Notes: a model not told the origin generated them from the sequence alone. A stretch of 64,000 nt of DNA from an uncultured bacterium (GCA_964293305.1 CAXYYO010000011.1:1-64000), one strand, 5' to 3'. Shown: positions 471 to 45,470, counted from the stretch's first letter. Program-made: numbers and translations.

Positions 471-1373
471 ATGAGTATTAGTGTGAGTAATTTAACCCTT
501 CAGTATGGTGCACAATATGCTATTAAGGAAATAAGTTTTGCAGTGGATAAGGCGGAGGTGGTTGGTTTTTTGGGGCCCAATGGTGCAGGTAAAAGTACTA
601 CTATGAAAATTCTTACCGGTTATCTTTCTGCTCAGGCTGGCCAAGCTCATATATGTGGGCTAAATGTACAGGAGCACCCTCTTGAAATTAAACAAAAAAT
701 TGGCTATCTGTCTGAGGCAAATCCTTTATATTATGATATGTATATCAGGGAATATTTGGGTTTTATAGCGGCTACATTTAATATATCAAATCCTAAAAAA
801 GCCATTGAGCAAGTTATTGATCTGACTGGGCTGGGGGTGGAGGCTCATAAACGCACAGGCCAGTTGAGTAAGGGTTATAAACAGCGTGTGGGCCTAGCTG
901 CTGCATTAATTCATGACCCGGAAGTGCTCATTTTGGATGAACCTACGAGTGGTCTTGACCCCAATCAAGTATTGGAAATAAGAGATATTATAAAAGAACA
1001 AGCACGTAGTAAAACCATATTATTTTCATCGCATATCCTCAGCGAAGTAGAAGCGGTGTGCAAAAGGGTACTCATTATAAATAAGGGCGTGATTGTAGCA
1101 GATGACACATTGGATAACCTCAAACAAAACTCATCTGTAGGCAGCCTGTATTTTAAATTTGATAGGATGATTACATTGGATTTTTTTGAAAGTATAAGAG
1201 GTATTTCTGCTGCGCAGAATGAAGGCAATGTTTGGGTGATATCCGGTAGCCCATTACCATTGCTTCGTAAACAAATTATTGAGAAAGCAATGCAACAAAA
1301 CATAGATATTGTATCCATAGAAAACAGGCAGCAGCAATTGGAAGATGTCTTTAGATCTTTGACGAATGTGTAG
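471..1373 (+). CDS. ABC transporter ATP-binding protein (ABC-2 type, possibly the GldA-like gliding-motility ATPase); no permease gene adjacent
   Basis: The 300-aa ORF has Walker A GPNGAGKST, an ABC signature LSKGYKQRV and Walker B LILDEPTSGLD. The N-terminus MSISVSNLTLQYG matches the GldA size and pattern. Confidence 0.85.
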   Translation: MSISVSNLTLQYGAQYAIKEISFAVDKAEVVGFLGPNGAGKSTTMKILTGYLSAQAGQAHICGLNVQEHPLEIKQKIGYLSEANPLYYDMYIREYLGFIAATFNISNPKKAIEQVIDLTGLGVEAHKRTGQLSKGYKQRVGLAAALIHDPEVLILDEPTSGLDPNQVLEIRDIIKEQARSKTILFSSHILSEVEAVCKRVLIINKGVIVADDTLDNLKQNSSVGSLYFKFDRMITLDFFESIRGISAAQNEGNVWVISGSPLPLLRKQIIEKAMQQNIDIVSIENRQQQLEDVFRSLTNV

Positions 1374-1426: not shown

Positions 1427-2998
1427 TTACTTTTTTACCATTTTGCGGGCATCTATTGCTACAAACCCTTCCTGCGAACTGAGGGTGTGTATGGCTTTAA
1501 TGTTTTCATCCCAAATGGGTAAGGTTTTGCTGATGCGTTTTTCCTGATAAGCTGTGGGTGTTAGCAGTTCAATTTCATTAAGATTGATGGCATAACCATA
1601 AGTACAGCTACAATCCTGAGATGGGCGTATCAGTTTGTTGTCTTCTATATACAAATTGCCGGCAGGCCTTGCAGTACGCACATCACTCACTAAAGGATTT
1701 TGGGTATGTGCAGTCCATTGATCTGTAAGAAAATGTGGGGCATGAAATACATAGAGTTCGTCCCAGGCACTGGCTCCATCATTCTCTTTTATGTTTGTAA
1801 ACAACCACCACTTGTCTTCATGAAAGTATAAGGTAGAATCCACTGCATGCAGGTTTTGCATAAGTACTTTTTCGAGCTCCCACCTATATGGAAAAGCAGT
1901 GGCTCTATATAGTTCTATCGTTTTGTTGGCACTGGATTCGGGTAGCATATAAATTTCGTCATTATGCTGAAAAATGAATGGATAAGAAAGGTGATAAGGT
2001 TTATCCAGTACAACCTGTGGTGAGGATGCCTGGCCCTCATCATCTATCGTTAATACACTGATATGTGCCTTCTTGGTGGCATATAAATATTCCTCAAAAA
2101 AAATGTATCGGGTGTTGTTATGAATGAATACTGAAGGGTCTGCCCAGAATGCTTTTTTTGGTGCAGTTATGCTTTTATACTTTGAAAAATCTGTGGATAC
2201 TTTTTTATCGGGTGCTGTATGATGTAGGAGTAGCCACTGCTGAAATTTTTTTCTTTTCTGAATATATCTTTTGCCTTCGGCCAATATTTTTTTGAGCAGA
2301 AACTGTAGCATCAATCCATTGCCCGGAGGGCGAAAATATCTGGTGGCTGTAAGTGCATCATTTTCTATTTTTTGTAAGGTGCCAGTACGCTGATAGGCGG
2401 CAATAACACGGCTTGCAAAAGCTGCTGCCTTCCAACAGGCTATATTTAAATTTCTATTAATATATGGCTGTGTGGAGGAATAACTTGCATACAATACTTC
2501 TGGCTTTTTAGCATTTGCATATTCTACCATTAAGCATACAGGTGTACTGCATTCTTGTTTGATAACTGCGTGTGCTACAGCACTGGCTGCCTGCGCATTA
2601 AAAAGATTTCCGGGGCCAAAATACCAAGTGCCCAGTACAGGAATTGCTTTGATCGATTCCGGTATTATTTTGCTGCTCAGATTTAAAATGCAGTGCGGCT
2701 GCCATTGTTTAATAATGGCTATATCCGTTTCGGCTGCTATAGGTAAATGTTGAATTGATGGTGGCCATTGTTTGGCAGCAAATGCATTGGGTTTGGGTTT
2801 GCTTATTTTATTTTCCAACTTTCGATACAACCTGTAAGTTAGTTCAGAAAATTGATGCGGTTTGCTATGTTTTTTTTGCTGGTGAATGATGCCTGCAAAT
2901 TTAACCCCCGGTTGTGCAGATAGCTTTTCTATACAAAGCAATAACCATGCAGGCAATTGTTTATCATACACATAAAATGCAATGGTGAAATCTGTCAT
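1427..2998 (-). CDS. hypothetical two-domain protein: N-terminal formyltransferase-like region plus C-terminal GH43/GH130-like β-propeller-like region (ADPSVF...YIFFEEY)
   Basis: The 523-aa ORF has zero intergenic distance to the upstream GT4 and is the last gene of a six-gene minus-strand operon. The C-terminal half starts with the DPS-type motif typical of 5-bladed propeller glycosidase and phosphorylase folds. Confidence 0.45.
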   Translation of the reverse strand: MTDFTIAFYVYDKQLPAWLLLCIEKLSAQPGVKFAGIIHQQKKHSKPHQFSELTYRLYRKLENKISKPKPNAFAAKQWPPSIQHLPIAAETDIAIIKQWQPHCILNLSSKIIPESIKAIPVLGTWYFGPGNLFNAQAASAVAHAVIKQECSTPVCLMVEYANAKKPEVLYASYSSTQPYINRNLNIACWKAAAFASRVIAAYQRTGTLQKIENDALTATRYFRPPGNGLMLQFLLKKILAEGKRYIQKRKKFQQWLLLHHTAPDKKVSTDFSKYKSITAPKKAFWADPSVFIHNNTRYIFFEEYLYATKKAHISVLTIDDEGQASSPQVVLDKPYHLSYPFIFQHNDEIYMLPESSANKTIELYRATAFPYRWELEKVLMQNLHAVDSTLYFHEDKWWLFTNIKENDGASAWDELYVFHAPHFLTDQWTAHTQNPLVSDVRTARPAGNLYIEDNKLIRPSQDCSCTYGYAINLNEIELLTPTAYQEKRISKTLPIWDENIKAIHTLSSQEGFVAIDARKMVKK

Positions 2999-4111
2999 TT
3001 ACCTTAATGCTTTATAAAGATCAATAATTTCATTTACCTGCTTGGTAAGTGAATAGTTATTTACAACAAATGCCCTTGCTTTATTGCTTTCTTCGAGGTA
3101 TCGTTGAGGTTCTTTTGTATAGGCACAAATAACTTGTGCAATGGCAGCAGCATTGTATGTATCAAACTTGTGGCCAATGCCGGGTATGTCTAATTGCTTG
3201 ATGCCTCCTACATTGCTTACCACTGGCACACAGCCACTACTCATGGCTTCCATAATGGCAAGTGGCAAGCCTTCAAAATCGCTGGTGAGGAGAAATATAT
3301 CAATGCGTTTATAGGCTTCTGCAGTGCTGCTCATTTTGCCAGGTAATTCAATTTTGCCAGACATACCTAATGCTTGTATTTTATTGCGCAGCATTTCATC
3401 ATCCGGTCCATCACCCACCATTAAAAATTCAATGTTAGGATTGAGTTTATGAATTTCAGCTGCTACTTCTGCCCATTTATCTACCCGCTTTTGTGGTCTA
3501 AATCTTGCTACCAAACCCACAGTAAGTTTTTCTGCAGCATTTACATTTTGCCGCTCCGGATTATGAAAAGTGGCCGTATCAATGCCATTCAATATAGTAA
3601 CTGGATGGTTGGTTTTATAAAACCATCCTTTTTGATTTTGCTTTATTATTTTACTTACTTCATGGCTTACAGAAATGATGCTATCATTTAAACCATAAGT
3701 ATAACCGCTGAGGTAGTAATTATACTTTGTATAGGAGGTTACCAGATTGTGCTCGCTGTAAATAAATTTTGTTTTACCTGCGGTAAATAATTTTGCCACA
3801 ATACCCATCCATCCGGCCACGGGTAAATGCATATGCACCATATCATATTTTCCCCTGGCGATATGTATTAAAAACCGAATGTATTCTATTAAAAATTTCC
3901 AATGTGTAATTTTATAATAATATACCTTATTGATATTTGGCGTTACATCTGGCACTAAGCCCAATTTGATATGATCTAAAATAAATAAATCACTATCCAC
4001 TTCCTTTTTAAATTCGGGTGTTTTAAAAAATTCTCGGAGCAATACTTCTGCGCCACCATAACTAAATACCCGAATAACGTGTGCTACTTTTATTTTTTTA
4101 TTCATGGACAA
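2999..4111 (-). CDS. glycosyltransferase family 4 (GT-B, retaining)
   Basis: The 370-aa ORF carries the C-terminal E-x7-E-type motif LTSDFEGLPLAIMEAMSSGCVPVVSNVGG, typical of GT4/GT1. Confidence 0.85.
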   Translation of the reverse strand: MSMNKKIKVAHVIRVFSYGGAEVLLREFFKTPEFKKEVDSDLFILDHIKLGLVPDVTPNINKVYYYKITHWKFLIEYIRFLIHIARGKYDMVHMHLPVAGWMGIVAKLFTAGKTKFIYSEHNLVTSYTKYNYYLSGYTYGLNDSIISVSHEVSKIIKQNQKGWFYKTNHPVTILNGIDTATFHNPERQNVNAAEKLTVGLVARFRPQKRVDKWAEVAAEIHKLNPNIEFLMVGDGPDDEMLRNKIQALGMSGKIELPGKMSSTAEAYKRIDIFLLTSDFEGLPLAIMEAMSSGCVPVVSNVGGIKQLDIPGIGHKFDTYNAAAIAQVICAYTKEPQRYLEESNKARAFVVNNYSLTKQVNEIIDLYKALR

Positions 4112-4125
4112 CAGCGTTAATAAAC

Positions 4126-5058
4126 TTACCTATTTACAATATCTAGGATGCGATTTTTGGTTTCATCACTAAATACCGTTTTTGTATTTTCGGCAGTATT
4201 TCTATTTTGTATTTTCATGTTGTCAATATATGCCTGCACATATTTGCTGGGTGGCAGCTCTGTAAAGTCAAGCATTTGTTGAATAAATATTTGGGGGTTG
4301 GCTACAAAATCTTCATAGCGCATTTCAAGCACATTCAAATTGAGCTTTTTGATTTCATAAGCAGCAGTATCCATCAGCTTTTTATATTGAAATGCAGTTA
4401 TTAAAGCGGGATCATTTTTTAATGTTTCTGCTTCTGCTATTTCAGCCTCGGAGTATGCACCCAGCCACCAAAGTTTGTTGATACCCATACGCTGCCAAAA
4501 ACCTACTTGAAGCCAGCTTCTTACAGTTGGAATAGGATCTCTGACGATATTGATAATTTTTGCATCGGGGAATACGCTGGTCAAAAATTCTAATCTTGCA
4601 GGGCCTGTAAATTTCATGAATAATCGCTGCCTGCCTTGGTATTTTACCATTTTTGAAAGATAGCTACGCATATAGGTTGCTTCTTCATTTGTAGCTTTTG
4701 TATCTAATAAAAATCCTCTTGAAAAATCAATGCGTGGGCCTGTAATTTTTTCCCAAAGGCCATAAAGTTCTACGGGATTAAAAATAAATAATTGGGTTAT
4801 AAAACTGCCCCAGCCTTGACGGGTGTTTTTTGAAAAACCTACATATTTCCAAAAGCGTGGAATACGCCAAATTTTATTATCAAAAAAATATCGCCACAGG
4901 CTAATGAGTGGTGTAAATTTTAGGACTTCATTATATTGGCTATGCCATCCTAACTGCTCATGCTGTATGATTATTTCAGATATGATGGTGGTACCGCTGC
5001 GTCCGCTACCAATAATGAGAATTGGCTTTTTTAGCACTGTATCTTTCACTTCATTCAT
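4126..5058 (-). CDS. sulfotransferase family protein (PAPS-dependent)
   Basis: The 310-aa ORF has an N-terminal 5'-PSB P-loop ILIIGSGRSGTTIIS. It is a paralogue of the adjacent gene. Confidence 0.75.
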   Translation of the reverse strand: MNEVKDTVLKKPILIIGSGRSGTTIISEIIIQHEQLGWHSQYNEVLKFTPLISLWRYFFDNKIWRIPRFWKYVGFSKNTRQGWGSFITQLFIFNPVELYGLWEKITGPRIDFSRGFLLDTKATNEEATYMRSYLSKMVKYQGRQRLFMKFTGPARLEFLTSVFPDAKIINIVRDPIPTVRSWLQVGFWQRMGINKLWWLGAYSEAEIAEAETLKNDPALITAFQYKKLMDTAAYEIKKLNLNVLEMRYEDFVANPQIFIQQMLDFTELPPSKYVQAYIDNMKIQNRNTAENTKTVFSDETKNRILDIVNR

Positions 5059-5073
5059 ACAACAATTGTACTT

Positions 5074-5988
5074 TTAATTGGAAGTATATGGAGCTACTAT
5101 CTCGAGAATTTTTTGTTTTGTTTCGTCTGAAATTGCTGTTTTTTCAGACTTAGCCTGTCGGTCATTTCTGTTTTTTACAGATATTTTTTCATCCATATAT
5201 TTATCAATGAGTCTGGATGATTGTAAACCTGTAAAATCTAGAATTTGGTTAATAACAGCCTTACTATCTTTTACAAAATCTTCATATCTTACAGTAAGCA
5301 TATTTGGATTCATTTTAGCTATTTCCAAATCAGTGGTTTCCATCAATTTTTTATACTGAAAAGCTGCAAATAATGCTGGGTCAGCAGCATATTTCTTTGC
5401 TTGTATGAGTTCTTCTTCATTATAAGCACCTGTCCACCAAAGTTGGTCAGTAATTTGAGTACTCCATACTACTTCCATCCAACTGCGTACTGTGGGCACC
5501 GGGCTTCTGGTAATATTTATAAAAATTGCATCTGGAAATAAGCTCATGAGGTATTCCATACGGGCTGGTCCTGTAAGTTTAAATGCAAGTCGCTTACGGT
5601 TTTGAAATTTTACTAACTTATTTAAGAAACTGCGTATAGGGCCACGCTCTTCATTGGTGGCTCTCTCATTCATCAAAAACCCTCTACTAAAATCAATGCG
5701 TGGACCAGTGAGTTTTTCCCAAAATGTATATCGCTCTATTGGTCGAAAACACATATAGTTGATGAACCCTTTATTGTTTTGGGTATTCATACCTATGTAT
5801 CTCCAATATTTGTTATCAAACAACCTACGGGCATAATTCACATAAGCGTTTTTTGGAAAAAGCTCCTGATAATTATTATGCCAAGCCAAATCTTCATGCT
5901 GAAATATGATATCACTAATAATGGTGGTACCACTGCGACCCGTACCAAATATGATGATGGGTTTTTGTAGAAATTGTTCTGTTGACAT
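5074..5988 (-). CDS. sulfotransferase family protein (PAPS-dependent), tandem paralogue
   Basis: The 304-aa ORF has IIIFGTGRSGTTIISD. It aligns along its whole length with 4126-5058 (shared RGF, KFTGPAR, PTVRSW, AFQYKKLM, RYEDFV and RN motifs). Confidence 0.75.
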   Translation of the reverse strand: MSTEQFLQKPIIIFGTGRSGTTIISDIIFQHEDLAWHNNYQELFPKNAYVNYARRLFDNKYWRYIGMNTQNNKGFINYMCFRPIERYTFWEKLTGPRIDFSRGFLMNERATNEERGPIRSFLNKLVKFQNRKRLAFKLTGPARMEYLMSLFPDAIFINITRSPVPTVRSWMEVVWSTQITDQLWWTGAYNEEELIQAKKYAADPALFAAFQYKKLMETTDLEIAKMNPNMLTVRYEDFVKDSKAVINQILDFTGLQSSRLIDKYMDEKISVKNRNDRQAKSEKTAISDETKQKILEIVAPYTSN

Positions 5989-6027
5989 AAATTGTTGCTT
6001 GATTTTTTTAGGACTTATAAATCATTA

Positions 6028-7101
6028 TTATTCTAATATTTTCCTTACTGGTTTCATACCCTCAAAGCGAAAAACACTATCCACTTTAAGGCTATCTTGA
6101 GGCCATATTGGAGAGAATTTCAAAATGTTTTTTCCTGCTTCATCCTGATCAAGATACTTCTTGATTTGTACAATAAAAGTATCCACAAATTTGCGAGCTC
6201 CTCTATCATTCATGTGTACATAATCATAAAAATAATCTGTCTTTAAAAACTCCGGATCAGATGCGTAGTGGAAATAGGGAACATTATATTGTTTCAATAT
6301 TTTCTTGAATTCCACCATAGATTTTGTATCTCCAAAAGGGGCAATATATAGGGGTGACATTACAGCTACTAATTTGATATTATTATCTAAAACTGTTGTT
6401 ATGAAGCGCTCAAACTGGTTGCGGGCAAAAGTGTCCATGTCTTTAGCATCATCAAATTCATAGGGTGGTGGTGGGCCGTCAATTCTTGTGCCTCTAAGTG
6501 CCAAGTAACCTTGTTTTACATCTGATGGATTTCCCATTTCTGTATTTGCAGACAATCCTTCAATAGTTGGAAGAATATAAGAATTGTAAGCATACAGTTT
6601 TGAAATTTGTGCTTTGCGTAGTTCCTCCGGAAAATTCATTTCTGCCACTTTTTTAAAGTCTTCATCCCTCCGAACATATGGCAAAATGGTGGAAGCCATA
6701 ACCAATCTACTGTTTTCACCACTTCTGAAAGTAAACTCCTTTGGTGTGATGTCCAATATGATTAACTTGGGTTTATACTTTGTTAATGCCATGGGCATAA
6801 TGGAAGAGTGATACAATATATTTGAATTTTGTCTGCTACAATTGAAGCAGCTTAATCCAAAACTATCTGTGAAAAGCTCTGTAACATAGGTATGCACACC
6901 TCGGCTACTACCATAAATAACAATATCTTCTTTGGGATCTTTTACACTATGGCGAAAATTTGCAATGTCACCCTGCGGTCTTTTATTATATAGTGTTTCT
7001 ACTAACGTTCCAAAAATGCGATCACACACAAAAAGAAGAACAAGAAATATAAATAACTTGAAGAAAAATTTTTTTACATCTTTTATTTCTGCTGCCGTCA
7101 T
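6028..7101 (-). CDS. DltD/AlgJ/AlgX-like SGNH-fold protein, partner of the MBOAT O-acyltransferase
   Basis: The 357-aa ORF has an N-terminal TM anchor and a C-terminal DYVHMNDRGARKF, resembling the DxxH motif of AlgJ/DltD. It lies immediately downstream of the MBOAT gene with a 18-nt gap. Confidence 0.65.
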   Translation of the reverse strand: MTAAEIKDVKKFFFKLFIFLVLLFVCDRIFGTLVETLYNKRPQGDIANFRHSVKDPKEDIVIYGSSRGVHTYVTELFTDSFGLSCFNCSRQNSNILYHSSIMPMALTKYKPKLIILDITPKEFTFRSGENSRLVMASTILPYVRRDEDFKKVAEMNFPEELRKAQISKLYAYNSYILPTIEGLSANTEMGNPSDVKQGYLALRGTRIDGPPPPYEFDDAKDMDTFARNQFERFITTVLDNNIKLVAVMSPLYIAPFGDTKSMVEFKKILKQYNVPYFHYASDPEFLKTDYFYDYVHMNDRGARKFVDTFIVQIKKYLDQDEAGKNILKFSPIWPQDSLKVDSVFRFEGMKPVRKILE

Positions 7102-7119
7102 GGAATAAATAATTATTTA

Positions 7120-8544
7120 TTAAAATTGAAAATAAAGAAATTGACTACCATTGAAAACACCAATCATTAAGATTAAAACCATAATGGCTAAATAGGATGA
7201 ATACCTAATTACAACATTATTGTTATTTAAACCCTTAACCTTCGGCAGGTATTCTTGAATTAGTTCAATTACCAAAAGAATGGCTCCTACATATAGACAA
7301 TAGTGAAATGTTATTGGTGGTTCACCCTTAAACATGTGCCCAAACTTTGCTGGATTAAATACTGTTTTGAATATATGCCAAGCGTCCTTCATGGATAAAG
7401 AGCGATAGAAAATAAGCATGGGGACATACATGAGCAGAGAAAATATTGTACCCGAAATTATTAGAGGAACTTTTGGAATCCATTTTTTTGGCTTCACCAA
7501 TTTCATATAGTATCTTTCTACAATTATCATCAAACCTGTATAAGCACCAGCACAGATATAGGTAAATGAAGGCCCATGCCAAAAACCGCTCAGTGTAAAA
7601 ATGAGCATTATGCCTACAAAAATTTTCGCCTGACTTTTTTTACCACTGGTGGTAAAAGGCAGGAAGACATAATCCCTAAACCAAGTGTAAAGAGAAATAT
7701 GCCAACGGATGACGCGTTCAGTAAAATTCTTTGCAAGTAGTGGTCTTCGGAAGTTTTCCATTAAATCGTACCCCATCACTTTGGCACTTCCAATAGCTAT
7801 ATCAGAATATCCGGAAAAATCACAATATGATTGTAGGATAAAAAAAATGCTAGCAACAAAAAGTGTAAGCCCACCGTGGTTGTAAGGATTATTGTAAACT
7901 GCATTCACATAGATTCCCATCCTGTCTGCAATTACTAATTTTTTAAAGAAACCCCACAACATTATTTTCAATCCTGCCACTACTCTGTTATATTCAAACT
8001 GTTTTTCTTCATAAAACTGGTGTATCATGTTTTGAGGGCGCTCTATCGGTCCTGCCACTAATTGTGGGAAAAACATGACATATAATGCGTAAATGCCAAA
8101 ATTTCTTTCGGGTTTATAGTTGCCACGATATATTTCGATAGTATAACTCATGGCTTGAAAAGTGTGAAATGAAAGACCTACTGGCAATGCCCACCCTATA
8201 TTTTTTATGGGATTCGTCATTTCAAAGACACCTAAAAAAGTAGATATGCCATCATTTATAAAATTGAAATATTTAAAAACACTTAAAATAAGCAGATTGG
8301 CCACGATACTGATGAGTAAATATAATTTTCGCTTTTTGCCCTTGGCATTTTCTATAAAAATACCCGCAAAATAGTCAACAATGATGGTAAAGAGCAGTAC
8401 AAAAATGTAATACCAAATGTAGTCCATATAGAAAATACAACTACTCACAAGCAGCAAAAGCCACCTGAATTTGTGGGGTATTAGAAAGTATAAACCAATA
8501 ACTATAATGAAGAAATAAATAAAAGTAAGCGAATTGAAAAGCAT
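7120..8544 (-). CDS. MBOAT family membrane-bound O-acyltransferase (AlgI/DltB-like)
   Basis: The ORF has the conserved His motif RVIRWHISLYTWFRDYVFLPF, like DltB/AlgI WHISLSTWFRDY. The likely true start is the internal Met at 8544 (MLFNSLTFIYFF, the typical MBOAT N-terminus), not the ORF-track start at 8649. Confidence 0.8.
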   Translation of the reverse strand: MLFNSLTFIYFFIIVIGLYFLIPHKFRWLLLLVSSCIFYMDYIWYYIFVLLFTIIVDYFAGIFIENAKGKKRKLYLLISIVANLLILSVFKYFNFINDGISTFLGVFEMTNPIKNIGWALPVGLSFHTFQAMSYTIEIYRGNYKPERNFGIYALYVMFFPQLVAGPIERPQNMIHQFYEEKQFEYNRVVAGLKIMLWGFFKKLVIADRMGIYVNAVYNNPYNHGGLTLFVASIFFILQSYCDFSGYSDIAIGSAKVMGYDLMENFRRPLLAKNFTERVIRWHISLYTWFRDYVFLPFTTSGKKSQAKIFVGIMLIFTLSGFWHGPSFTYICAGAYTGLMIIVERYYMKLVKPKKWIPKVPLIISGTIFSLLMYVPMLIFYRSLSMKDAWHIFKTVFNPAKFGHMFKGEPPITFHYCLYVGAILLVIELIQEYLPKVKGLNNNNVVIRYSSYLAIMVLILMIGVFNGSQFLYFQF

Positions 8545-8751
8545 GCCTATGTTTTTGGGGCGCAAACATAATGAATCTAACTCAATGAGTGAACATACGA
8601 TTTGTTTGAATGTAGCCAATATCGCCAGCCCTGTAAAGACAAACTCCAAATATCATAATACATGGAAAAAATAATTTGAAATCGATTCATTTACTTTCAA
8701 TTCCTCATTTCTCTGCATATTGCCATAATTTTTAATATAATTTATTGTAAT

Positions 8752-9552
8752 TTGTCTCTTAAACCATTAGTTAGCATATTAATTATTCATTATAACAGGC
8801 TGCATACGCTTAAAGAATGTATTGGGTTTGCCAGAACAAACATCCGATACCCCAATCTTGAATTCATCATTGCGGATGATGGCAGCCCTGCTGATGTGCA
8901 GGCAGCCATCAGACTCTTGCCTTTTGATAAATTTATACTTCCAGAAAAAAATGCCGGTCTTGGGGCCAATACAAACAATGGTTTAGCAGCTTGTAGTGGT
9001 GAATATATTTTTCAGATACAGGACGACCACTTTGTGCTTCCCGGTTTTGAAGATTTTGTAGAAAAAGCTATCAAGGTATTGCAACAGGAAAAAAATAAAG
9101 GCATCATCAGAGCATTAATCAATAAGGATTTTACATCCTTTACCATTAGCAGTGCCCATGGAATTTCTTATCGTGTTATAGATAAACCAATTTGGAAAAA
9201 TGGTTACAATGGATTTCACCAGCACTCAGAGTTGCCGCATTTTAAGCACAACAGTTATCATAAGGAGTTAGGATTATATACTGAAGGCACTGATATGATT
9301 TATATGGAAAATGAATTTTCTATTAGGTTTTTGAGAGCCAACGGATATCGCTTATTTTTTCTTATAGGATATGACAATATCTTTCATCATGCTACTGAGT
9401 TTAGTTTTAGACCTGCTATTTATAAAGGCATGACGGATTCCGGTGTATATGCCAACTTGAAAAAAACAATCAAGGAAAAGCTGCCCATACTTCGGCTTCT
9501 ACGTTTCTATTGGTGGATGATAAAATATGACCCAGTAAAAAGAAGGTATTAA
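8752..9552 (+). CDS. glycosyltransferase family 2
   Basis: The N-terminus VSILIIHYNRLHTLKEC...FIIADDGS is the GT-A DxD region. The ORF track implies a TTG start, so the start codon is uncertain. It is transcribed divergently from the minus-strand operon. Confidence 0.7.
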   Translation: MSLKPLVSILIIHYNRLHTLKECIGFARTNIRYPNLEFIIADDGSPADVQAAIRLLPFDKFILPEKNAGLGANTNNGLAACSGEYIFQIQDDHFVLPGFEDFVEKAIKVLQQEKNKGIIRALINKDFTSFTISSAHGISYRVIDKPIWKNGYNGFHQHSELPHFKHNSYHKELGLYTEGTDMIYMENEFSIRFLRANGYRLFFLIGYDNIFHHATEFSFRPAIYKGMTDSGVYANLKKTIKEKLPILRLLRFYWWMIKYDPVKRRY

Positions 9553-9824
9553 GGTTTGCCTTCTAAACTATTGCAATAAGCCAAAGAGCCTAATCTCAGC
9601 CTAATGGCTACCCCTGTTGCTTTCTCCAGTTTCCATTCTACAGCACATGCGCCTGTGAGCTTATTGGTATAAAAATTTTTAGGAAGGCTAAAAAAGGAAA
9701 AATTTTGTGGTAATGAATCCATAGCAGTTATAGGATGCATTATTGTACTATCACTTGTTCTTGATTGTGCAGTTAAACAAACTGTTGTAAAGAAAAAAAT
9801 ACAACTAAACATAAATTGCTTCAT
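9549..9824 (-). CDS. small secreted hypothetical protein with signal peptide
   Basis: The 91-aa ORF begins with a hydrophobic leader, MKQFMFSCIFFFTTVCLTAQ. It converges on the GT2 gene with a 4-nt overlap. Confidence 0.35.
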   Translation of the reverse strand: MKQFMFSCIFFFTTVCLTAQSRTSDSTIMHPITAMDSLPQNFSFFSLPKNFYTNKLTGACAVEWKLEKATGVAIRLRLGSLAYCNSLEGKP

Positions 9825-10401
9825 AGTGTAAAATTAGTGATTGGTATGCAATAGTTTTAATGAAAAATTGCAGTCATTATAAATTTTATGAAAAGATTTA
9901 AAAAAAATACGCCATCCATCCTTATGGCAGCTACTCCATTAATTACAAAAAAGAAGGATTTTTCGCCCTACGGGCAATGCCTACAAGGTAGAGATAGCTT
10001 AAAGACAAATGATTGATAAATATGATTATTACCGTTCCCACTTGAAAAGACCCGCTTGTGAAATGTTTTTATCCACACTTCATGTAGCTATTCTTTAACA
10101 TTTTGCCACTCATATATCTTTACACCTTTCAAATGGCCAATTAGGCTATAAACAATGAACGACTACACAAATTTTCTGCTTTTCCGCTTCAGACAAAGAG
10201 TAAAACCACCAGAGTTATTTACACTTTAAGTGGTCATCGATTCCAGTATTTAGATTCGTGTACACTACACAATTTCGCAGCTTTTCAGCAAACTGTTTTG
10301 CTTGGCATATAGCATATAGCCAAATGAAATCAGTCATAGCAATTTTTTAATTCATTGCACGAAAGTGCTATAAATCAAGTTTTTAAAATACCTTTTTTGT
10401 C

Positions 10402-10557
10402 ATGAAACCAATTCTCCTTATCATCATATTATCAGTAATGGGTATATGCATGATGCAAGAAATAAATCATCCCAAATTGAGCATACAATCGGTCAGCCAA
10501 AAAGAATGGGTACCGCTCATTCCTTCATCTACAGAACTCATACGCTGGCAGTGGTAA
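10402..10557 (+). CDS. candidate small ORF (51 aa) with N-terminal hydrophobic segment, upstream of the flotillin gene
   Basis: The ATG at 10402 reads MKPILLIIILSVMGICMMQEINHPKLSIQSVSQKEWVPLIPSSTELIRWQW and ends at a TAA at 10555-10557. It is absent from the ORF track and has no homology support. Confidence 0.2.
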   Translation: MKPILLIIILSVMGICMMQEINHPKLSIQSVSQKEWVPLIPSSTELIRWQW

Positions 10558-10652
10558 ATATTTTTATCAGCCAGCATAAAACTCTCTTTATTTGTATTTC
10601 TTTTTTATAACAATCAGAATAATCCATTTATTCTTCTTAAACAGTAACAATT

Positions 10653-12578
10653 ATGAATTTATTTGAAATGATTCAGTCTTATTGGTGGGTATTAGTAATT
10701 TTACTATCATTAGTATTCTACAAATTTATCCTCCGAGTTTTTTTTGGTATGGTCATAGTACCCGAGGACCGTATAGGTCTTGTAACCAAAAAATTTGTAC
10801 TTTTTGGTGCCAACAAAGAATTGCCCGATGGGCGCATTATTGCCACAAAAGGCGAAGCAGGTTTTCAGGCAAAAACTTTAGCACCGGGTCTATATTGGGG
10901 CATGTGGCCCTGGCAGTATGGTGTTGACATGCATCCATTTTCTGTTATTCCCGAAGGGAAAATAGGATTAGTATTAAGTAATGATGGCGCTGAATTGCCA
11001 ACGGGTAATATTCTAGGTAGAAAAGTTGATTGTGATAATTTTCAAGATACACAAAGGTTTCTTGAAAATAACGGTCAGAAAGGAAGGCAAACCCATTTAC
11101 TTACCCCAGGTACATATCGTATTAATTCATTTGCATTTAGTATTACACTAGCAGATATGACAATCATACAGGAAAATATGGTAGGCATAGTGACTAGTTT
11201 GGATGGTAATCCAATACGATCCGGACAAATAGCAGGTGAATCTGTTGAAGGCCATAATAACTTTCAGGATTTCGACGCTTTTCTATCAAAAAATGGTAAC
11301 AGAGGTTTACAGCCTCAGGTAATACTTGCGGGTAGTTATTTTCTCAATCCATGGGCTATTCAATTAGAACAAATACCTATGACAGATGTGTCTATTGGTC
11401 ATGTAGGTGTAATTATATCTTATATTGGTGAAGATGGTAAGGATCTTTCAGGAGATAGTTTTAAACATGGCAATATTGTAAGCAAAGGTTTTAGAGGTGT
11501 ATGGATGGATCCATTAGGGCCAGGTAAATATCCCATCAATAAATATACTATGAAATTAGAGTTGGTACCTACCACAAACTTAGTATTGAACTGGGCAAAT
11601 GCACGTAGTGAAGCACATACATTAGACAAAAATTTAAGCACCATTACCGTACGAAGTAAAGATGGATTCCCATTCAATTTAGATGTGGCACAAATTATTC
11701 ATATACCTGCAAATGAGGCACCAAAGGTGATAGCAAGATTTGGCAGTATGACAAATTTGGTGAGCCAAGTACTAGAGCCTACTATTGGTAACTATTTCCG
11801 TAATAGTGCACAGGATAGTGATGTAATTTCATTTTTAAGTACACGTAAAGAAAGACAGACCGCAGCAAAAGATCATATCCGTACCGTTTTGGATGAGTAC
11901 AATGTAAATGCAGTAGATACACTAATTGGAGATATTGTACCTCCAGAATCTCTTATGAAAACTTTAACTGATCGTAAGATTGCACAGGAGGAAGAAAAGA
12001 CTTACGAAACACAAAGAATGGCTCAAGAAAAAAGGCAGGGCATGGAGAAAGAAACTGCCATTGCAGACATGCAAAAAGAAATTGTAAAAGCACAACAAAG
12101 TGTAGAAATAGCCCAGCGTACTGCAGATGCTACCATTCGCAAGGCAGAAGGTGATGCCAGCAGTTTAAAGCTTAATGTAAGCGCAGAAGCAGAAGCTACA
12201 AAAATGCGTGCATTGGCAGAAGCAGAAGCTACAAAAGCTAGAGCGGCTGCACAAGCTGAAGCTACCAAATTGAATGCGGATGCGGATGCTACTCAAATTT
12301 CAAAAACTGGTTTGGCAGAGGCTGAAAAAATCATGGCTATTGGTAAGAGTACAGCAGAAGCATACCAACTACAAGTGGGTGCTATGGGAGGCGATAATTT
12401 CACAAAATATAAGATGATCGAAGAAATTGGTAAAGGAAATATTAAAATTATACCAGAAATACTTATAGGTGGGGGAAATAGTACTGATGGCAGCCTGAGT
12501 GGTTTGATGGGCATGCAATTGCTCCAAATGATTCAGGAAAAGAAAAAAGAGCAGGGAGAAGGAGAAGAAAAATCATAA
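10653..12578 (+). CDS. flotillin-like SPFH/band-7 family protein (YqiK/FloT-like)
   Basis: The 641-aa ORF has an N-terminal TM helix and an SPFH-like core. The C-terminal region is coiled-coil with Ala/Glu repeats (AEAEATKMRALAEAEATKARAAAQAEATK), characteristic of flotillins. Confidence 0.8.
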   Translation: MNLFEMIQSYWWVLVILLSLVFYKFILRVFFGMVIVPEDRIGLVTKKFVLFGANKELPDGRIIATKGEAGFQAKTLAPGLYWGMWPWQYGVDMHPFSVIPEGKIGLVLSNDGAELPTGNILGRKVDCDNFQDTQRFLENNGQKGRQTHLLTPGTYRINSFAFSITLADMTIIQENMVGIVTSLDGNPIRSGQIAGESVEGHNNFQDFDAFLSKNGNRGLQPQVILAGSYFLNPWAIQLEQIPMTDVSIGHVGVIISYIGEDGKDLSGDSFKHGNIVSKGFRGVWMDPLGPGKYPINKYTMKLELVPTTNLVLNWANARSEAHTLDKNLSTITVRSKDGFPFNLDVAQIIHIPANEAPKVIARFGSMTNLVSQVLEPTIGNYFRNSAQDSDVISFLSTRKERQTAAKDHIRTVLDEYNVNAVDTLIGDIVPPESLMKTLTDRKIAQEEEKTYETQRMAQEKRQGMEKETAIADMQKEIVKAQQSVEIAQRTADATIRKAEGDASSLKLNVSAEAEATKMRALAEAEATKARAAAQAEATKLNADADATQISKTGLAEAEKIMAIGKSTAEAYQLQVGAMGGDNFTKYKMIEEIGKGNIKIIPEILIGGGNSTDGSLSGLMGMQLLQMIQEKKKEQGEGEEKS

Positions 12579-13935: not shown

Positions 13936-13973
13936 TTCTATGTTTTCACTACTCAAACTTAAATTAAAATTTG

Positions 13974-16900
13974 ATGAAAAAATTATTACTTCTATTCTCA
14001 TTTGGTATATCGTTGACAGTAGGTGCACAAATTAATTCCAGTACATTTGGAATGATGGAGGCACGTACATTGGGCCCTGGAACCATGAGTGGGCGTATTT
14101 CAGCAATTGAAGGTGTAAATAGCGAACCTCGTATTCTATATATTGGTACAGCAGGTGGTGGAGTTTGGAAAAGCACAAATGCGGGTGCCTCATTTAAGCC
14201 TTTATTTGATAAATATTGCCAGAGTATTGGTGCTATAGCAATCGACCAAAAAAATCCCAAAAATATATATGTAGCCACAGGTGAGAGTAATATGAGAAAC
14301 TCCGTATCTATTGGTGATGGGATCTATAAATCAACAGATGGTGGCGATAACTGGACAAAAATTGGTTTAGATAGCACTGAGCATATTGCTAAAGTTGCCA
14401 TTGATCCTAATAACAGTAACATTGTTTATGTGGCAGCCCCAGGCCCTTTGTGGAGTGATAGTAAACATCGTGGTTTGTATAAAAGCAGTGATGCGGGTAA
14501 AACCTGGGAAAAAATTCTTTACATCAATGAGAAGGCCGGTTGTGCGGAAGTTGTAATAGATCCAAAAAATTCGAATATAATTTATGCCAGTACTTGGGAA
14601 TTTCGCCGTCAGCCATTTTCCTTTAATAGCGGCGGCACCGGAAGTGGCTTTTATAAGAGTACAGATGGAGGAAAAAACTGGAAAGAAATTTCAAATGGAT
14701 TGCCTGCTAAGCCCTTTGGGCGTATAGCTTTTAACATAGCACCATCAGATCCAAATAAATTGGTGGCCATTGTTGAAAGTAGCAGTACGGGTTTATATAT
14801 CAGTTCTGATGGAGGAGAAAGTTGGAAAAGCCAGAGTGCAATTCTCAATGTAGTAGCACGTCCTTTTTATTTTAGTACAATTGTAATTGATCCTAAAGAT
14901 GCAAAAAGGGTATATAGACCTGCATTTGAATTTTCATATAGTGACGATGGTGGTTATTCCTTTGCCACAGCAAGTAATGAAGGGGGATGGATACATAGCG
15001 ACATGCATGCACTATGGATAAACCCATCTAATACCAACAATATGTATGTGGGCACTGATGGAGGTGTATATATGAGTAACGACCGTGGTGCCACTTGGAT
15101 ATTCTGTGATAAATTACCTGTTGGTCAGTTTTATCATTTATCAGTTGATAACCAAAAGCCATATTATAGAGTGTATGGTGGTTTGCAGGATAATGGCAGT
15201 TGGGTAGCACCATCCTCATATCCTGGAGGAGTATCCAATGCTAAATGGGAATCATTTTATGGAGGAGATGGCTTCTGGACTCAGCCCGATCTTACTGACC
15301 CAAATATTGCTTATGCTGAGGCACAAGGTGGAAATATGGGTAGAACCGATTTAACTACCTTTAAAAGCACAAACATACAACCACAACAAGGCCCCAGCGA
15401 AGAAAAACTACGTTGGAATTGGAATACCCCAATTGTATTAGGGTTAAAGAATCCTCATAATTTATATACCGGTGCTCAATACCTTTATAAGAGTACAGAT
15501 CAAGGCCGCAATTGGACCAGAATAAGTGGCGACCTTAGCACTAATGATAAGAAAAAGCAAGAACAGGAAAAGAGTGGTGGATTAAGTGCAGACAATACAT
15601 CAGCAGAAAATCATTGTACTGTTTTTACAATAGCAGAATCACCCATTGATGAAAATATTGTATGGGCTGGCACTGATGATGGAAATATTCAATACACAAT
15701 TGATGGCGGAAAAAACTGGACTAATGTTTCTGCAAATTGGGCTGCTGCGGGAGCTGCCTCTCAAAGTTGGGTGAGCAGTATAGAACCAAGCAGGTATGAT
15801 AAGCAAACTGTTTATGTAAGCACAGAAAATCACATGTATGGTGATATGAATACTTATGCCGGTGTAAGTAGAGATATGGGTAAAACATGGACAATGTTTA
15901 AGAGCAAAGAGTTTACAGGATTTGCACATAAAGTAACAGAAGACCCTGTCAATAAAAATCTTCTTTTTCTGGGAACTGAAATGGGTCTTTTTGCATCTGT
16001 AGATGCAGGAGACAGCTGGTTTAGAATGAAAAATAATATACCTTGGCAAGCGTTAGTAAGAGATATAAAAATACATCCTTCAACCAGTGATCTAATCCTT
16101 GCCACACATGGCAGGGGTATTATTGTTGTAGATGATATCACTCTGATGCGTACACTTACACCTGAAATTGCTAAGAAAGACTTTATATTGTTTAATCAAC
16201 CTGATATGTTATTAAGAAATGGCATTTTGGGTGGAGTTGCTTTTCCACCGCAGGGTTGGGTTTCTGGCAATGCTCCTGATATTATTGCTATTCAATATTA
16301 CATGAAGGAAAGACTCAATTCAGGGGATGTTAGTATTGATATTTTAGATGCCTCCGGCAAATTGATTCAAAATATTCCTGGTAGTAAACGAAAAGGCTTA
16401 AATAAAGTATATTGGAATTTAAGGGGTAAAGGCCCTAAGACTGCAAGTGGCGGAAGTAAAGCAGATAATAGCAGCCTTATTGCTCCAATGGTACTGCCTG
16501 GTACCTATACCATAAAAGTGACCGCAGCAGGCAAATCCTATACTACTCCTGTTAAAGTAGTTCATGATGATATGAATAAAGATTTGTCTTTAGAAGGTCA
16601 AAAAGAGTTATATGAAAATGCTTTAAAACTTGCTTCATTTCATGAGCGGTTGGCTACTGTAGTAGAAGATGTTTCCAGAAAGCAATCTGTTTTAAGAATT
16701 GCTATAGATTCTTCAAAAGAAGCAAAACTAAAAAAAGCAGCTGGCGACTATTTGACTAGGCTAGAAACATTTCGTGCAACGCTATTACCCACCAGTAATA
16801 AATCTATTTTTGCTGATGAGAAAAGACTTCGTGAGGAAATAAGTGAAGTATATATCGCCCTTTGCTTTAAGGAAGCTGCTCTAAGTAATACTGAACTGCT

Positions 16901-17138
16901 ATCTGTAAGTCGCTTAGCTGATTCAATCAATGTAACAGAAACAAGGCACAAAACTCTGATGGCAGAATTGAATAGCAAATTGGGAAGTAAATTAGAGAAA
17001 GCGGGTTATAGTCTAGCTGTTTATCATTCGAACTATTTAAATCAAAATACGAATGAAGCTGCTGGTTTTGCACAAAATACATCAGCAAGTCAATCTGGAA
17101 TTTTGACTAGAAATTTTTTCAGAAATTTTCAATTTTAA
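13974..17138 (+). CDS. large secreted BNR/Asp-box repeat protein (sortilin/VPS10- or GH74-like double β-propeller)
   Basis: The ~1054-aa ORF has a signal peptide and at least nine S-x-D-x-G-x-x-W repeats (STDGGDNW, SSDAGKTW, STDGGKNW, SSDGGESW, SNDRGATW, STDQGRNW, TIDGGKNW, SRDMGKTW, SVDAGDSW). The start is probably the ATG at 13974. Confidence 0.75.
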   Translation: MKKLLLLFSFGISLTVGAQINSSTFGMMEARTLGPGTMSGRISAIEGVNSEPRILYIGTAGGGVWKSTNAGASFKPLFDKYCQSIGAIAIDQKNPKNIYVATGESNMRNSVSIGDGIYKSTDGGDNWTKIGLDSTEHIAKVAIDPNNSNIVYVAAPGPLWSDSKHRGLYKSSDAGKTWEKILYINEKAGCAEVVIDPKNSNIIYASTWEFRRQPFSFNSGGTGSGFYKSTDGGKNWKEISNGLPAKPFGRIAFNIAPSDPNKLVAIVESSSTGLYISSDGGESWKSQSAILNVVARPFYFSTIVIDPKDAKRVYRPAFEFSYSDDGGYSFATASNEGGWIHSDMHALWINPSNTNNMYVGTDGGVYMSNDRGATWIFCDKLPVGQFYHLSVDNQKPYYRVYGGLQDNGSWVAPSSYPGGVSNAKWESFYGGDGFWTQPDLTDPNIAYAEAQGGNMGRTDLTTFKSTNIQPQQGPSEEKLRWNWNTPIVLGLKNPHNLYTGAQYLYKSTDQGRNWTRISGDLSTNDKKKQEQEKSGGLSADNTSAENHCTVFTIAESPIDENIVWAGTDDGNIQYTIDGGKNWTNVSANWAAAGAASQSWVSSIEPSRYDKQTVYVSTENHMYGDMNTYAGVSRDMGKTWTMFKSKEFTGFAHKVTEDPVNKNLLFLGTEMGLFASVDAGDSWFRMKNNIPWQALVRDIKIHPSTSDLILATHGRGIIVVDDITLMRTLTPEIAKKDFILFNQPDMLLRNGILGGVAFPPQGWVSGNAPDIIAIQYYMKERLNSGDVSIDILDASGKLIQNIPGSKRKGLNKVYWNLRGKGPKTASGGSKADNSSLIAPMVLPGTYTIKVTAAGKSYTTPVKVVHDDMNKDLSLEGQKELYENALKLASFHERLATVVEDVSRKQSVLRIAIDSSKEAKLKKAAGDYLTRLETFRATLLPTSNKSIFADEKRLREEISEVYIALCFKEAALSNTELLSVSRLADSINVTETRHKTLMAELNSKLGSKLEKAGYSLAVYHSNYLNQNTNEAAGFAQNTSASQSGILTRNFFRNFQF

Positions 17139-31526: not shown

Positions 31527-31806
31527 GATGTACCCATGATGTAGTTGAAATTGGTCAAAAATAAGGGCATTAGTTAAATGTTGTAGATGGGTTGTAGCCT
31601 ATTTTTTGGTAGTAGCATACGTTGAATTTTAAGTTTGCAGCCTAATATTATTTAAAATATTAAACAAACGATTGCAGCATTTCCTACACGGTTACTTTCA
31701 CAACATCAATATGGCAGCTATACATATTGATGGATAATGTAAAGTCCAATTGTCATGCTTGTTGTATGTTTTAGATAAAACTAAATTATTAAAAATTACT
31801 CCTTTT

Positions 31807-34935: not shown

Positions 34936-34942
34936 TTTCTAT

Positions 34943-36805: not shown

Positions 36806-36832
36806 TTTTCATCATAGCAAATAATCATTCAA

Positions 36833-37675: not shown

Positions 37676-37797
37676 ATCCTGTTAAAAACTTTAGGAGTTG
37701 ATAAGATACTTTTCAACTCCTTTTTTATGAATTAATTTTTCAACCCTATTCTCTTAACTATCTCTTCTCTAACAAAAATTACACTGACGAATATTAA

Positions 37798-45448: not shown

Positions 45449-45470
45449 ATTTAAAATAAATTTTCAATAC

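Follow-up and report, generated by a model that had tools for sequence, protein, structure and literature searches.

A conserved operon of Parafilimonas with two paralogous sulfotransferases predicted to tailor a sulfated, O-acylated cell-surface glycan

Polysaccharides that carry sulfate are uncommon among bacteria. NodH, LpsS/KpsS and Stf0, enzymes with an Arg-type 5'-PSB, are known to sulfate glycoconjugate precursors in the cytoplasm in a PAPS-dependent manner, and two-component periplasmic O-acylation is known from AlgI/AlgJ/AlgX (alginate), PatA/PatB (peptidoglycan), WssH/WssI (cellulose) and DltB/DltD (teichoic acid). The sulfated exopolysaccharide synechan of Synechocystis sp. PCC 6803 is encoded by the xss cluster, which is of the Wzx/Wzy type and carries two Sulfotransfer-family sulfotransferases among its glycosyltransferases (PMC8205485). 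Sulfated capsular polysaccharide (CPS) clusters have been published for the marine Gammaproteobacteria Cobetia marina KMM 1449 (PMC11766843) and Vibrio sp. KMM 8419, whose CPS is 3-O-sulfated and 4-O-acetylated, both on one sugar (PMC11641403); these are ABC-transporter (Kps) capsule loci of 70–80 genes with cysDNC inside (PMC11641403, PMC11766843). The original prediction for the locus described here, which listed only rhizobial NodH-type and KPS sulfation and cyanobacterial exopolysaccharides as known cases, was therefore incomplete in this respect. The enzyme types and the pathway logic considered below are ordinary, and clusters for sulfated, even for sulfated and O-acetylated, bacterial polysaccharides are already known. 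In the literature searched, no report was found of a sulfated polysaccharide from Bacteroidota or of a sulfated glycan from the genera considered here.

The locus lies in a 64-kb stretch of DNA (the window) from Parafilimonas (Chitinophagaceae, Bacteroidota), a soil or freshwater bacterium. As first proposed, six closely spaced genes form a minus-strand operon at positions 1427–8649, which is adjoined by a divergent GT2 gene:

7120–8544, minus strand: MBOAT-family membrane O-acyltransferase (AlgI/PatA/DltB-like), first gene of the operon
6028–7101, minus strand: membrane-anchored SGNH-fold protein, predicted to act with the MBOAT protein in acyl transfer in the periplasm
5074–5988, minus strand: ST_a, cytoplasmic PAPS-type sulfotransferase, 304 aa (Sulfotransfer_3 and Sulfotransfer_1)
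4126–5058, minus strand: ST_b, cytoplasmic PAPS-type sulfotransferase, 310 aa (Sulfotransfer_3 and Sulfotransfer_1)
2999–4111, minus strand: GT4 glycosyltransferase (GT-B, retaining; Glycos_transf_1 and Glyco_transf_4), always downstream of both sulfotransferases
1427–2998, minus strand: two-domain cytoplasmic protein with a formyltransferase-like fold and a propeller (Foldseek; Pfam GINT1_N)
8752–9552, plus strand, divergent: GT2 glycosyltransferase (GT-A; Glycos_transf_2)

Judged from their sequences, ST_a and ST_b are most likely PAPS-dependent sulfotransferases. ST_a scores 64.1 bits with Pfam Sulfotransfer_3 (PF13469, gathering threshold 27 bits) and 35.8 bits with Sulfotransfer_1 (PF00685, 22 bits), and ST_b scores 67.5 and 39 bits, which is above both thresholds, so that the sulfotransferase placement holds against that in another P-loop family. 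The two proteins are paralogues (50% identity). Across 20 sequences, both paralogues included, G17 and G19-R20-S21-G22-T23-T24 of the 5'-PSB (ST_b numbering), corresponding to the loop GxGRSGTT (GRSGTTIIS in the original assignment), are invariant, as are R173...S181 of the 3'-PB; the first segment aligns with PRSGTT and the second with VRDGRASVHS (RD...S) of TPST1. No signal peptide or transmembrane segment is evident in the N-terminal sequences, and no NCBIfam family matches either protein. ST_b is very remote from any characterised enzyme, its best PDB sequence match being entry 2z6v (E 1.6e-3), which we take to be a mycobacterial Stf-type sulfotransferase. Both proteins are so far from characterised enzymes (best PDB E about 1e-3) that homology does not reveal the acceptor. 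Orthologues of ST_b share 59–67% identity across genera, and each related locus that covers the place of ST_a has an orthologue there, intact copies scoring 400–475 bits. Wherever a locus extends far enough, both genes occur in this order, a few copies being frameshifted, and the fact that the duplication is ancient and was retained in every covering locus argues for two non-redundant activities. The operon is of value as a candidate first example from Bacteroidota and as a source of uncharacterised, putative carbohydrate sulfotransferases.

The longest open reading frame of the MBOAT gene extends to a TTG at 8649, where the gene had at first been taken to begin, but the start is more probably the ATG at 8544 (MLFNS...); the orthologues have 473 aa. 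The family assignment itself stands, with 81.4 bits for Pfam MBOAT (PF03062, cut-off 27), DltB as the nearest solved structures (E 5e-21), and a translation that shows a WHISL histidine motif and an FWHG motif, the conserved catalytic histidine being present; the NCBIfam DltB model is reached with 126 bits, under its cut-off of 375. Adjacent to it is encoded the extracytoplasmic SGNH partner that had been anticipated, with an N-terminal anchor helix and invariant GSSR (block I Ser) and DxxH (block V Asp/His) blocks, as in two-component systems. No Pfam or NCBIfam model matches this partner, DltD, AlgJ and PatB-type models included; its family is small and clade-restricted, and wherever a locus extends to the neighbouring gene, that gene encodes an MBOAT protein. 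A Dlt system (DltB/DltD D-alanylation) was considered and rejected, there being neither a DltD-family match nor DltA and DltC genes.

The GT4 and GT2 assignments were likewise upheld by Pfam. The GT4 protein scores 98.4 bits with Glycos_transf_1 and 40.5 bits with Glyco_transf_4 and has BshA GlcNAc transferases as nearest solved structures (E 2e-18), but it reaches no NCBIfam equivalog (BshA model 97 bits versus a cut-off of 273.7). The GT2 protein (Glycos_transf_2, 59.6 bits; DDGS and QDDH motifs) was found only in this contig (L001) among the fetched loci, where it sits at the place that in most related loci is taken by genes for an initiating transferase and Glf. What had been called a two-domain unknown has indeed two domains, and these can now be named. 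Its C-terminal half is a five-bladed beta-propeller of the GH130/GH43 type (Pfam GINT1_N, 163 bits), and its N-terminal half matches the ArnA formyltransferase fold in Foldseek (E 2e-7), with no Pfam match, Formyl_trans_N included, and an hhalign probability of only 2% with PurN. In a by-eye alignment, which is not rigorous, the motif region reads GTWYFGPG versus GAFNLHGS in ArnA, which suggests that the Asn and His of the catalytic Asn-His-Asp triad, a mark of sugar/tRNA formyltransferases together with an HxSLLP motif, are lost and that this domain is probably catalytically degenerate. Identity with plant GINT1 was rejected: that GlcN(Ac)-inositolphosphorylceramide transferase has a GT64 catalytic domain, whereas the protein here has GINT1_N without GT64 or any other further Pfam domain and an ArnA-like fold instead. 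The name GINT1 carries no functional information here; the other relatives compared were GH130 mannoside phosphorylases/synthases. The gene is an accessory one that recurs with modules of one GT4 and two sulfotransferases.

The window holds no initiating phosphotransferase (none of the polyprenyl-phosphate glycosylphosphotransferase type by tblastn), no Glf, CysQ, UDP-glucose dehydrogenase or exporter, no homologue of Wzx, Wzy or Wzc and no such Pfam domain in reading frames of at least 150 aa. Genes for PAPS synthesis (cysDN/cysC; ATP sulfurylase and APS kinase) were found neither in the window nor in about 9 kb of contig past its end. The window thus encodes an incomplete pathway, a module that would serve for tailoring and partial assembly only.

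It is mainly because of the comparison with other genomes that the sulfated-glycan reading is supported. We compared 40 species-level loci from Chitinophagaceae, a few of them fragments or with frameshifted copies, and in all 40 the order ST_a-ST_b-GT4 is kept where the locus is long enough. This trio occurs in three contexts: with a polyprenyl-phosphate sugar-phosphate transferase and a UDP-galactopyranose mutase, in CysQ clusters, and in Wzc-Wzx-Wzy loci. In about 22 loci, genes for Glf and a polyprenyl glycosylphosphotransferase (TIGR03025 275 bits, just under the cut-off of 295.55; RfbP-type model 183 bits versus 330) are divergent from MBOAT-SGNH-ST_a-ST_b-GT4, and in one (L021) they directly adjoin ST_a, without the MBOAT pair. 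Five loci (L002, L003, L007, L019 and L047) also have CysQ, UDP-glucose dehydrogenase, additional GT4s and between one and three more sulfotransferases, the larger clusters holding up to five sulfotransferases; CysQ, the PAP phosphatase, scores 279 bits versus an NCBIfam equivalog cut-off of 228.8. The Wzx and Wzy genes of a synechan-type pathway, which are missing from the window, are present in Limnovirga soli KCS-6 (L032) and four metagenome-assembled genomes (L024, L035, L036 and L038), where Wzc, Wzx and Wzy are interleaved with three further sulfotransferases in the order Wzc-ST-Wzx-ST-ST-Wzy-ST_a-ST_b-GT4, with variations (ST_a was not detected in L035, and one extra sulfotransferase is missing in L038). 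The MBOAT-SGNH pair lies directly upstream of ST_a in about 24 loci, and in at least 11 of these the stop codon of the SGNH gene and the start of ST_a overlap, which suggests coupled expression. This does not mean that sulfation and acylation must go together: in Ilyomonas the trio stands alone among housekeeping genes, the pair being about 9 kb off or absent from the fetched flanks, and in L004 the pair stands alone. A stand-alone set of a GINT-like gene, GT4 and two sulfotransferases is found in L046.

We therefore consider it probable (roughly 0.7) that the genes of the operon tailor, and in part assemble, an O-acylated, sulfated glycan of the cell surface whose synthesis takes place on a polyprenyl-phosphate carrier. 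At the cytoplasmic face the GT4, possibly with the GT2 and the propeller protein, would extend a lipid-linked sugar whose initiating transferase would be encoded in another part of the genome; ST_a and ST_b, with PAPS as donor, would place sulfate on two different hydroxyls of the sugar unit, which would then be flipped and polymerised or ligated; and the MBOAT protein would move an acyl group, most likely acetyl, across the inner membrane to the SGNH protein, which would O-acylate the glycan in the periplasm. Acceptor, donor sugars and order of the steps are those that we infer, and the final product may be an exopolysaccharide (EPS) or capsule, an O-antigen, or an oligosaccharide linked to protein or lipid. 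The CysQ, glycosylphosphotransferase, Glf, UDP-glucose dehydrogenase and Wzc/Wzx/Wzy genes of the orthologous loci lend independent support to the sulfated polysaccharide originally predicted. The chances are even that the ST_a-ST_b-GT4 cassette indicates a glycosaminoglycan-like surface polysaccharide that is rich in sulfate and shared across the clade, in Chitinophagaceae of soil and freshwater. That reading draws on the up to five sulfotransferases and on the UDP-glucuronate and galactofuranose supply in related loci.

It is doubtful that the product is instead a short sulfated oligosaccharide moved en bloc (such as a unit of the LPS O-antigen or core, or the outer portion of the general protein O-glycan of Bacteroidota) and not a secreted polymer. 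The Parafilimonas-type clusters, which have a single initiating transferase and one to three GT4s but lack Wzy, Wzc and an exporter, would fit, as would the 59–67% identity of the trio across genera, which is above typical conservation of capsule or O-antigen genes. Bacteroidota O-glycans are, moreover, commonly acetylated; sulfate, however, is absent from the modifications named in a 2025 review of them, and the Limnovirga-type loci hold the trio together with Wzx, Wzy and a Wzc of the PCP-2a tyrosine-kinase type, the hallmark of high-molecular-weight EPS or CPS. That the MBOAT-SGNH pair acts on another substrate (peptidoglycan as PatA/PatB, or another polymer) and is merely co-located and co-transcribed with the trio is improbable in view of its position next to ST_a and of the overlapping genes, and because the SGNH family is tiny and clade-confined, unlike a housekeeping peptidoglycan O-acetyltransferase. 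Still more improbable is that the product of the GT4 and the two sulfotransferases would be a glycolipid or a small glycoside bearing sulfate and not a carrier-linked glycan, for which mycobacterial trehalose-2-sulfate lipids and BshA-type glycosylation of small molecules would be the analogues. The Ilyomonas trio and the L046 set, without glycan-assembly genes in the fetched flanks, the BshA structures and the 2z6v match could be so read, but similarity to BshA is generic for GT4 enzymes, the trio adjoins, in about 22 loci, a polyprenyl glycosylphosphotransferase and, in five or six, Wzx/Wzy/Wzc, and most loci couple it to an acylation pair of the periplasm. That both sulfotransferases are inactive, or that their fold serves another reaction, for which their remoteness from characterised enzymes and the lack of PAPS genes in the window might speak, is hardly credible given the invariant PAPS-binding residues of both paralogues, the bona fide CysQ inside orthologous clusters and the strong purifying conservation (at least about 60% identity across genera).

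If the reading of a clade-wide, glycosaminoglycan-like polysaccharide is true, this would be, as far as the literature searched shows, the first sulfated-polysaccharide pathway described in Bacteroidota, and its paired carbohydrate sulfotransferases and its SGNH acyltransferases would each represent a family not characterised before. With NodH, LpsS/KpsS and Stf0 the operon shares cytoplasmic enzymes of the PAPS type (motifs were compared with TPST1 only), but no significant sequence relationship of these to ST_a or ST_b was detected. With the Alg, Pat, Wss and Dlt systems it shares an MBOAT gene beside one for an SGNH-fold protein with N-terminal anchor and a Ser/His/Asp-type active site; it differs in being without DltA/DltC, AlgF and WssF/G genes and in its presumed substrate, a sulfated heteroglycan. 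The synechan cluster resembles the Limnovirga-type loci in combining sulfotransferases with a Wzx/Wzy pathway, but it belongs to another phylum; in the window Wzx, Wzy and PCP genes are unlinked, and the product of the operon is a predicted one; for xss, no MBOAT/SGNH pair is described and acetyl is not mentioned (PMC8205485), whereas the operon here has the pair. The Vibrio and Cobetia clusters likewise have sulfotransferases and glycosyltransferases, and they contain both CysQ and PAPS genes, whereas here there is CysQ only, and only in the loci of relatives. The module described here has 6–7 genes and is linked in relatives to Und-P and Wzx-Wzy, and where those clusters have a single cytoplasmic acyltransferase, it has two-component acylation by MBOAT and SGNH proteins.

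The six genes of 1427-8649 all lie on the minus strand, with intergenic gaps of 0, 14, 15, 39 and 18 nt, as the original prediction had it (gaps of 0-39 nt), and its family calls for the MBOAT, GT4 and GT2 genes agree with the Pfam matches. The features are as follows (Pfam cut-offs: Sulfotransfer_3, 27 bits; Sulfotransfer_1, 22 bits):

7120-8649, minus strand: MBOAT protein (Pfam MBOAT, 81.4 bits)
6028-7101, minus strand: SGNH protein, 357 aa, general SGNH fold
5074-5988, minus strand: ST_a (Sulfotransfer_3, 64.1 bits; Sulfotransfer_1, 35.8 bits)
4126-5058, minus strand: ST_b (Sulfotransfer_3, 67.5 bits; Sulfotransfer_1, 39 bits)
2999-4111, minus strand: GT4 glycosyltransferase (Pfam Glycos_transf_1 and Glyco_transf_4)
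1427-2998, minus strand: GINT-like protein (GINT1_N at residues 282-491, 163 bits)
8752-9552, plus strand: GT2 glycosyltransferase, 266 aa (Pfam Glycos_transf_2)

The longest ORF of the MBOAT gene begins at TTG 8649; since its orthologues have 473 aa and begin with MLFNS, the start is likely the ATG at 8544. A scan for sigma-70 promoters and terminators returned 48 sites versus 46.5 expected, with a consensus that does not cover Bacteroidota promoters, and Rfam and tRNA scans of the whole window gave no match. In the stretch 9549-10652, a 91-aa minus-strand ORF with a signal peptide-like N-terminus overlaps the GT2 stop, and about 830 nt without an ORF of at least 80 aa lie between this ORF and a Band 7 gene.

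ST_a and ST_b, which are paralogues with 50% identity, had been predicted to be sulfotransferases, and this held: both score above the Pfam cut-offs with their PAPS-binding motifs intact. By their profiles they are sulfotransferase-family members, since the search places them there and not in a different P-loop family. In an alignment of the two with 18 orthologues from other genera, the 5'-phosphosulfate loop (G17, G19-R20-S21-G22-T23-T24) and the 3'-phosphate motif (R173 ... S181) are invariant, and in the family profile both PAPS-binding segments match PRSGTT and RD...S of human TPST1. Judged by sequence, the family is remote from every solved or curated enzyme: neither protein matches an NCBIfam family, and the best match among PDB sequences (E 1.6e-3) is entry 2z6v, whose deposited name is 'putative uncharacterized protein'. 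Its size is modest, with 82 matches at E <= 1e-30 and 1326 at E <= 1e-3 among 1.84 billion representatives of 50% identity clusters.

The MBOAT protein and the adjacent SGNH protein are predicted to form the standard two-component arrangement for periplasmic O-acylation. The nearest solved relatives of the former are DltB proteins (E 5e-21); its score on the NCBIfam DltB equivalog, 126 versus 375 bits, is nevertheless far under the cut-off. The SGNH protein has no match in Pfam, NCBIfam or PDB sequences, and only 19 relatives were detectable in a search of 5.8 billion proteins. Invariant among these are D59, G64-S65-S66-R67, H296 and N298, the last two within the DxxH-type block DYVHMN. Thus, of the MBOAT/DltD-like pair originally proposed, the MBOAT-SGNH pair stands, but membership in DltD does not: there is no DltD profile match, only a general SGNH fold, and neither DltA nor DltC is present, which rules out a Dlt system.

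The decisive evidence for the interpretation is the comparative context. A pattern scan with one genome per GTDB species yielded 40 loci, and the ORFs of all fetched loci were compared with the window proteins and extra queries. All 40 come from Chitinophagaceae (Parafilimonas, Ilyomonas, Limnovirga and unnamed MAGs), the family of Bacteroidota to which Parafilimonas belongs. The order ST_a-ST_b-GT4 is constant in each locus of sufficient length; a few copies carry frameshifts or are fragments, and in L035, a Limnovirga-type locus, ST_a was not detected.

Three architectures can be distinguished. In the first, the Parafilimonas type, which about 22 loci show, that of P. terrae DSM 28286 among them, genes for UDP-galactopyranose mutase (Glf) and a small polyprenyl glycosylphosphotransferase are divergent from MBOAT-SGNH-ST_a-ST_b-GT4. 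This transferase reaches 275 bits on TIGR03025, just below the cut-off of 295.55, and 183 bits on the RfbP-type model (cut-off 330). In one locus of this type, L021, Glf and the phosphotransferase adjoin ST_a and the MBOAT pair is missing. Extended loci of this type (L002, L003, L007, L019 and L047) add the PAP phosphatase CysQ (279 bits on TIGR01331, above the cut-off of 228.8), more GT4s, a GINT-like protein, up to three more sulfotransferases and UDP-glucose dehydrogenase (Ugd). One of them, L047 33-16946 (GCA_048222875.1; L002 is the same cluster), comprises in 17 kb five sulfotransferases, three GT4s, CysQ, Ugd, Glf, the initiating transferase, MBOAT-SGNH and the GINT-like protein, with no flippase, polymerase or exporter in the cluster; its content suggests a heavily sulfated, uronic-acid-containing glycan.

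The second architecture, the Limnovirga type, is found in L032 (L. soli KCS-6), L024, L035, L036, L038 and the fragment L030, usually in the order Wzc - ST - Wzx - ST - ST - Wzy - ST_a - ST_b - GT4 as assigned by Pfam and homologue search. In L032 (435-12158), from a cultured type strain, five sulfotransferase-family genes are interspersed among those of the core Wzx/Wzy machinery. In the third, the Ilyomonas type, the ST_a-ST_b-GT4 trio is isolated, flanked by mutS and thioredoxin/mdh genes, and in some genomes the MBOAT-SGNH pair is found about 9 kb away. The window locus is a variant of the Parafilimonas type, with GT2 in place of Glf and the phosphotransferase and with the GINT-like gene directly after GT4; the nearest genome is that of an uncultured Parafilimonas sp. 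MAG, whose ST_b is 96% identical. In reverse complement, the window makes up most of an 89-kb metagenome contig, ENA ERZ24875810 NODE_46.

What had been called a two-domain unknown can be described further: the GINT-like protein (AlphaFold model, pLDDT 90) combines a formyltransferase-like fold with a GINT1_N propeller. Its N-terminal half, for which there is no Pfam match, resembles the formyltransferase domain of ArnA and Met-tRNA formyltransferase (Foldseek E 2e-7). With hhalign the expected segment was aligned to E. coli PurN at only 2% probability, which is uninformative, and a non-rigorous manual alignment suggests that the catalytic Asn and His have been lost. No GT64 domain accompanies GINT1_N, which is a GH130/GH43-like propeller; despite the Pfam name the protein is therefore not a GINT1 orthologue. 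A link to sphingolipid or inositol-lipid glycosylation, to which this name and an Inositol_P gene in relatives might point, fails as well, because the Inositol_P gene is CysQ by NCBIfam equivalog. The family has more than 1900 relatives, mostly in Chitinophagaceae and also in Proteobacteria. The protein recurs together with GT4 and two sulfotransferases in L046 and L047; in L046 (8001-12739) these four genes stand alone among unrelated ones, so the propeller protein travels with its own module of one GT4 and two sulfotransferases. It could plausibly act as an accessory enzyme of glycan processing or glycosyl transfer.

Other parts of such a pathway were searched for by Pfam of ORFs of at least 150 aa and by tblastn and phmmer with orthologues: no initiating transferase, Glf, CysQ, Ugd, Wzx, Wzy, Wzc or PAPS synthesis gene (cysDN/cysC) was found in the 64 kb window or in the approximately 9 kb of contig beyond its end. 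Elsewhere the window contains housekeeping genes, genes for T9SS cargo and a locus for beta-glucan utilisation. The laminarin-type beta-glucan locus (31750-49668, plus strand) encodes a GH2-like TIM-barrel protein, GH16, GH30, two MFS_2 transporters and GH17-like proteins; within it, the ORF 45471-47813 (plus strand; 780 aa) is unusual in fusing a GH17-like domain to the C-terminus of an MFS_2 sugar transporter. Cargo proteins with Por_Secre_tail are a Big_2 protein (49810-52158, plus strand) and a glucose/sorbosone dehydrogenase (55291-56727, plus strand), and their sorting domains agree with the placement in Bacteroidota. Also on the plus strand are a 641-aa SPFH/Band 7 protein (10653-12578), whose long, Ala/Glu/Lys-rich C-terminal half is probably a coiled coil, and a 1055-aa Sortilin/BNR-repeat protein (13971-17138), the latter likewise in keeping with a Bacteroidota origin. 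A gldA-like ABC ATPase gene (471-1373, plus strand; 381 bits versus a TIGR03522 cut-off of 402.6, just below) is convergent with the operon end. It probably has no functional link with the operon, and a connection to gliding motility is unsupported: the adjacency is found only in the nearest relative (L006) and is absent from other loci.

We consider it probable (about 0.7) that the operon is a module through which a surface glycan linked to polyprenyl phosphate receives a doubly sulfated sugar unit and is later O-acylated in the periplasm. Shown for it are membership in families and folds, intact motifs and, in relatives, conserved linkage to glycan-assembly, CysQ and Wzx/Wzy/Wzc genes. ST_a and ST_b would sulfate the sugar unit in the cytoplasm, ahead of flipping, since neither has a signal peptide or a transmembrane segment, and they may act at different positions, because the paralogues are universally co-retained. 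The MBOAT-SGNH pair would then O-acylate the glycan, the acyl group being most likely acetyl by analogy with the AlgI and PatA systems. That the product is not an exopolysaccharide or capsule but a short sulfated glycan (O-antigen, core or protein O-glycan) is unlikely: the compact Parafilimonas clusters, which have no polymerase, would fit, but the Limnovirga-type loci carry Wzx/Wzy/Wzc and sulfate is absent from known Bacteroidota O-glycans. It is somewhat less probable that the MBOAT pair acts on an unrelated substrate; in at least 11 loci of the Parafilimonas type the stop of the SGNH gene overlaps the start of ST_a. A sulfated glycolipid or small molecule as product is very improbable, the trio lying beside glycan-assembly or Wzx/Wzy/Wzc genes in many relatives. 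That ST_a and ST_b are inactive is hardly to be expected.

To our knowledge, very few bacterial carbohydrate sulfotransferases of known acceptor exist. Such enzymes are wanted for the enzymatic or microbial making of heparin-, chondroitin- and fucoidan-like sulfated polysaccharides. The family described here is compact, soluble and conserved, and its members are carried by at least three non-pathogenic type strains in culture (Parafilimonas terrae DSM 28286, Limnovirga soli KCS-6 and Ilyomonas limi 17mud1-8); the prediction is therefore directly testable, and the L032 locus of L. soli KCS-6 would make an excellent experimental system. If the prediction is true, the abundant Chitinophagaceae of soil and freshwater would bear an anionic, sulfated polymer on their surface, with effects on the binding of cations, the formation of biofilms and aggregates, the adsorption of phages and the sulfur content of soil organic matter, and bacterial polysaccharide sulfation would extend past cyanobacteria and a few marine Proteobacteria.

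Searches for literature on sulfotransferases or sulfated glycans in Chitinophagaceae, Parafilimonas, Ilyomonas and Limnovirga returned nothing relevant. As far as the literature was searched, there appears to be no prior description of a polysaccharide sulfation pathway in Bacteroidota, of the sulfotransferase subfamily with its fixed ST-ST-GT4 cassette, of the small SGNH family, or of the association with a formyltransferase-like and GH130-like protein. Sulfated polysaccharide loci as such, including those combined with O-acetylation, are already known in kind, since three cases are documented: in Synechocystis, sulfotransferases lie inside the locus for synechan (PMC8205485); in Cobetia marina, the capsular polysaccharide cluster contains cysNC, cysD and cysQ together with sulfotransferases (PMC11766843); and in Vibrio sp. 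KMM 8419, the capsular polysaccharide is both sulfated and O-acetylated, with sulfotransferases in its polysaccharide locus (PMC11641403).
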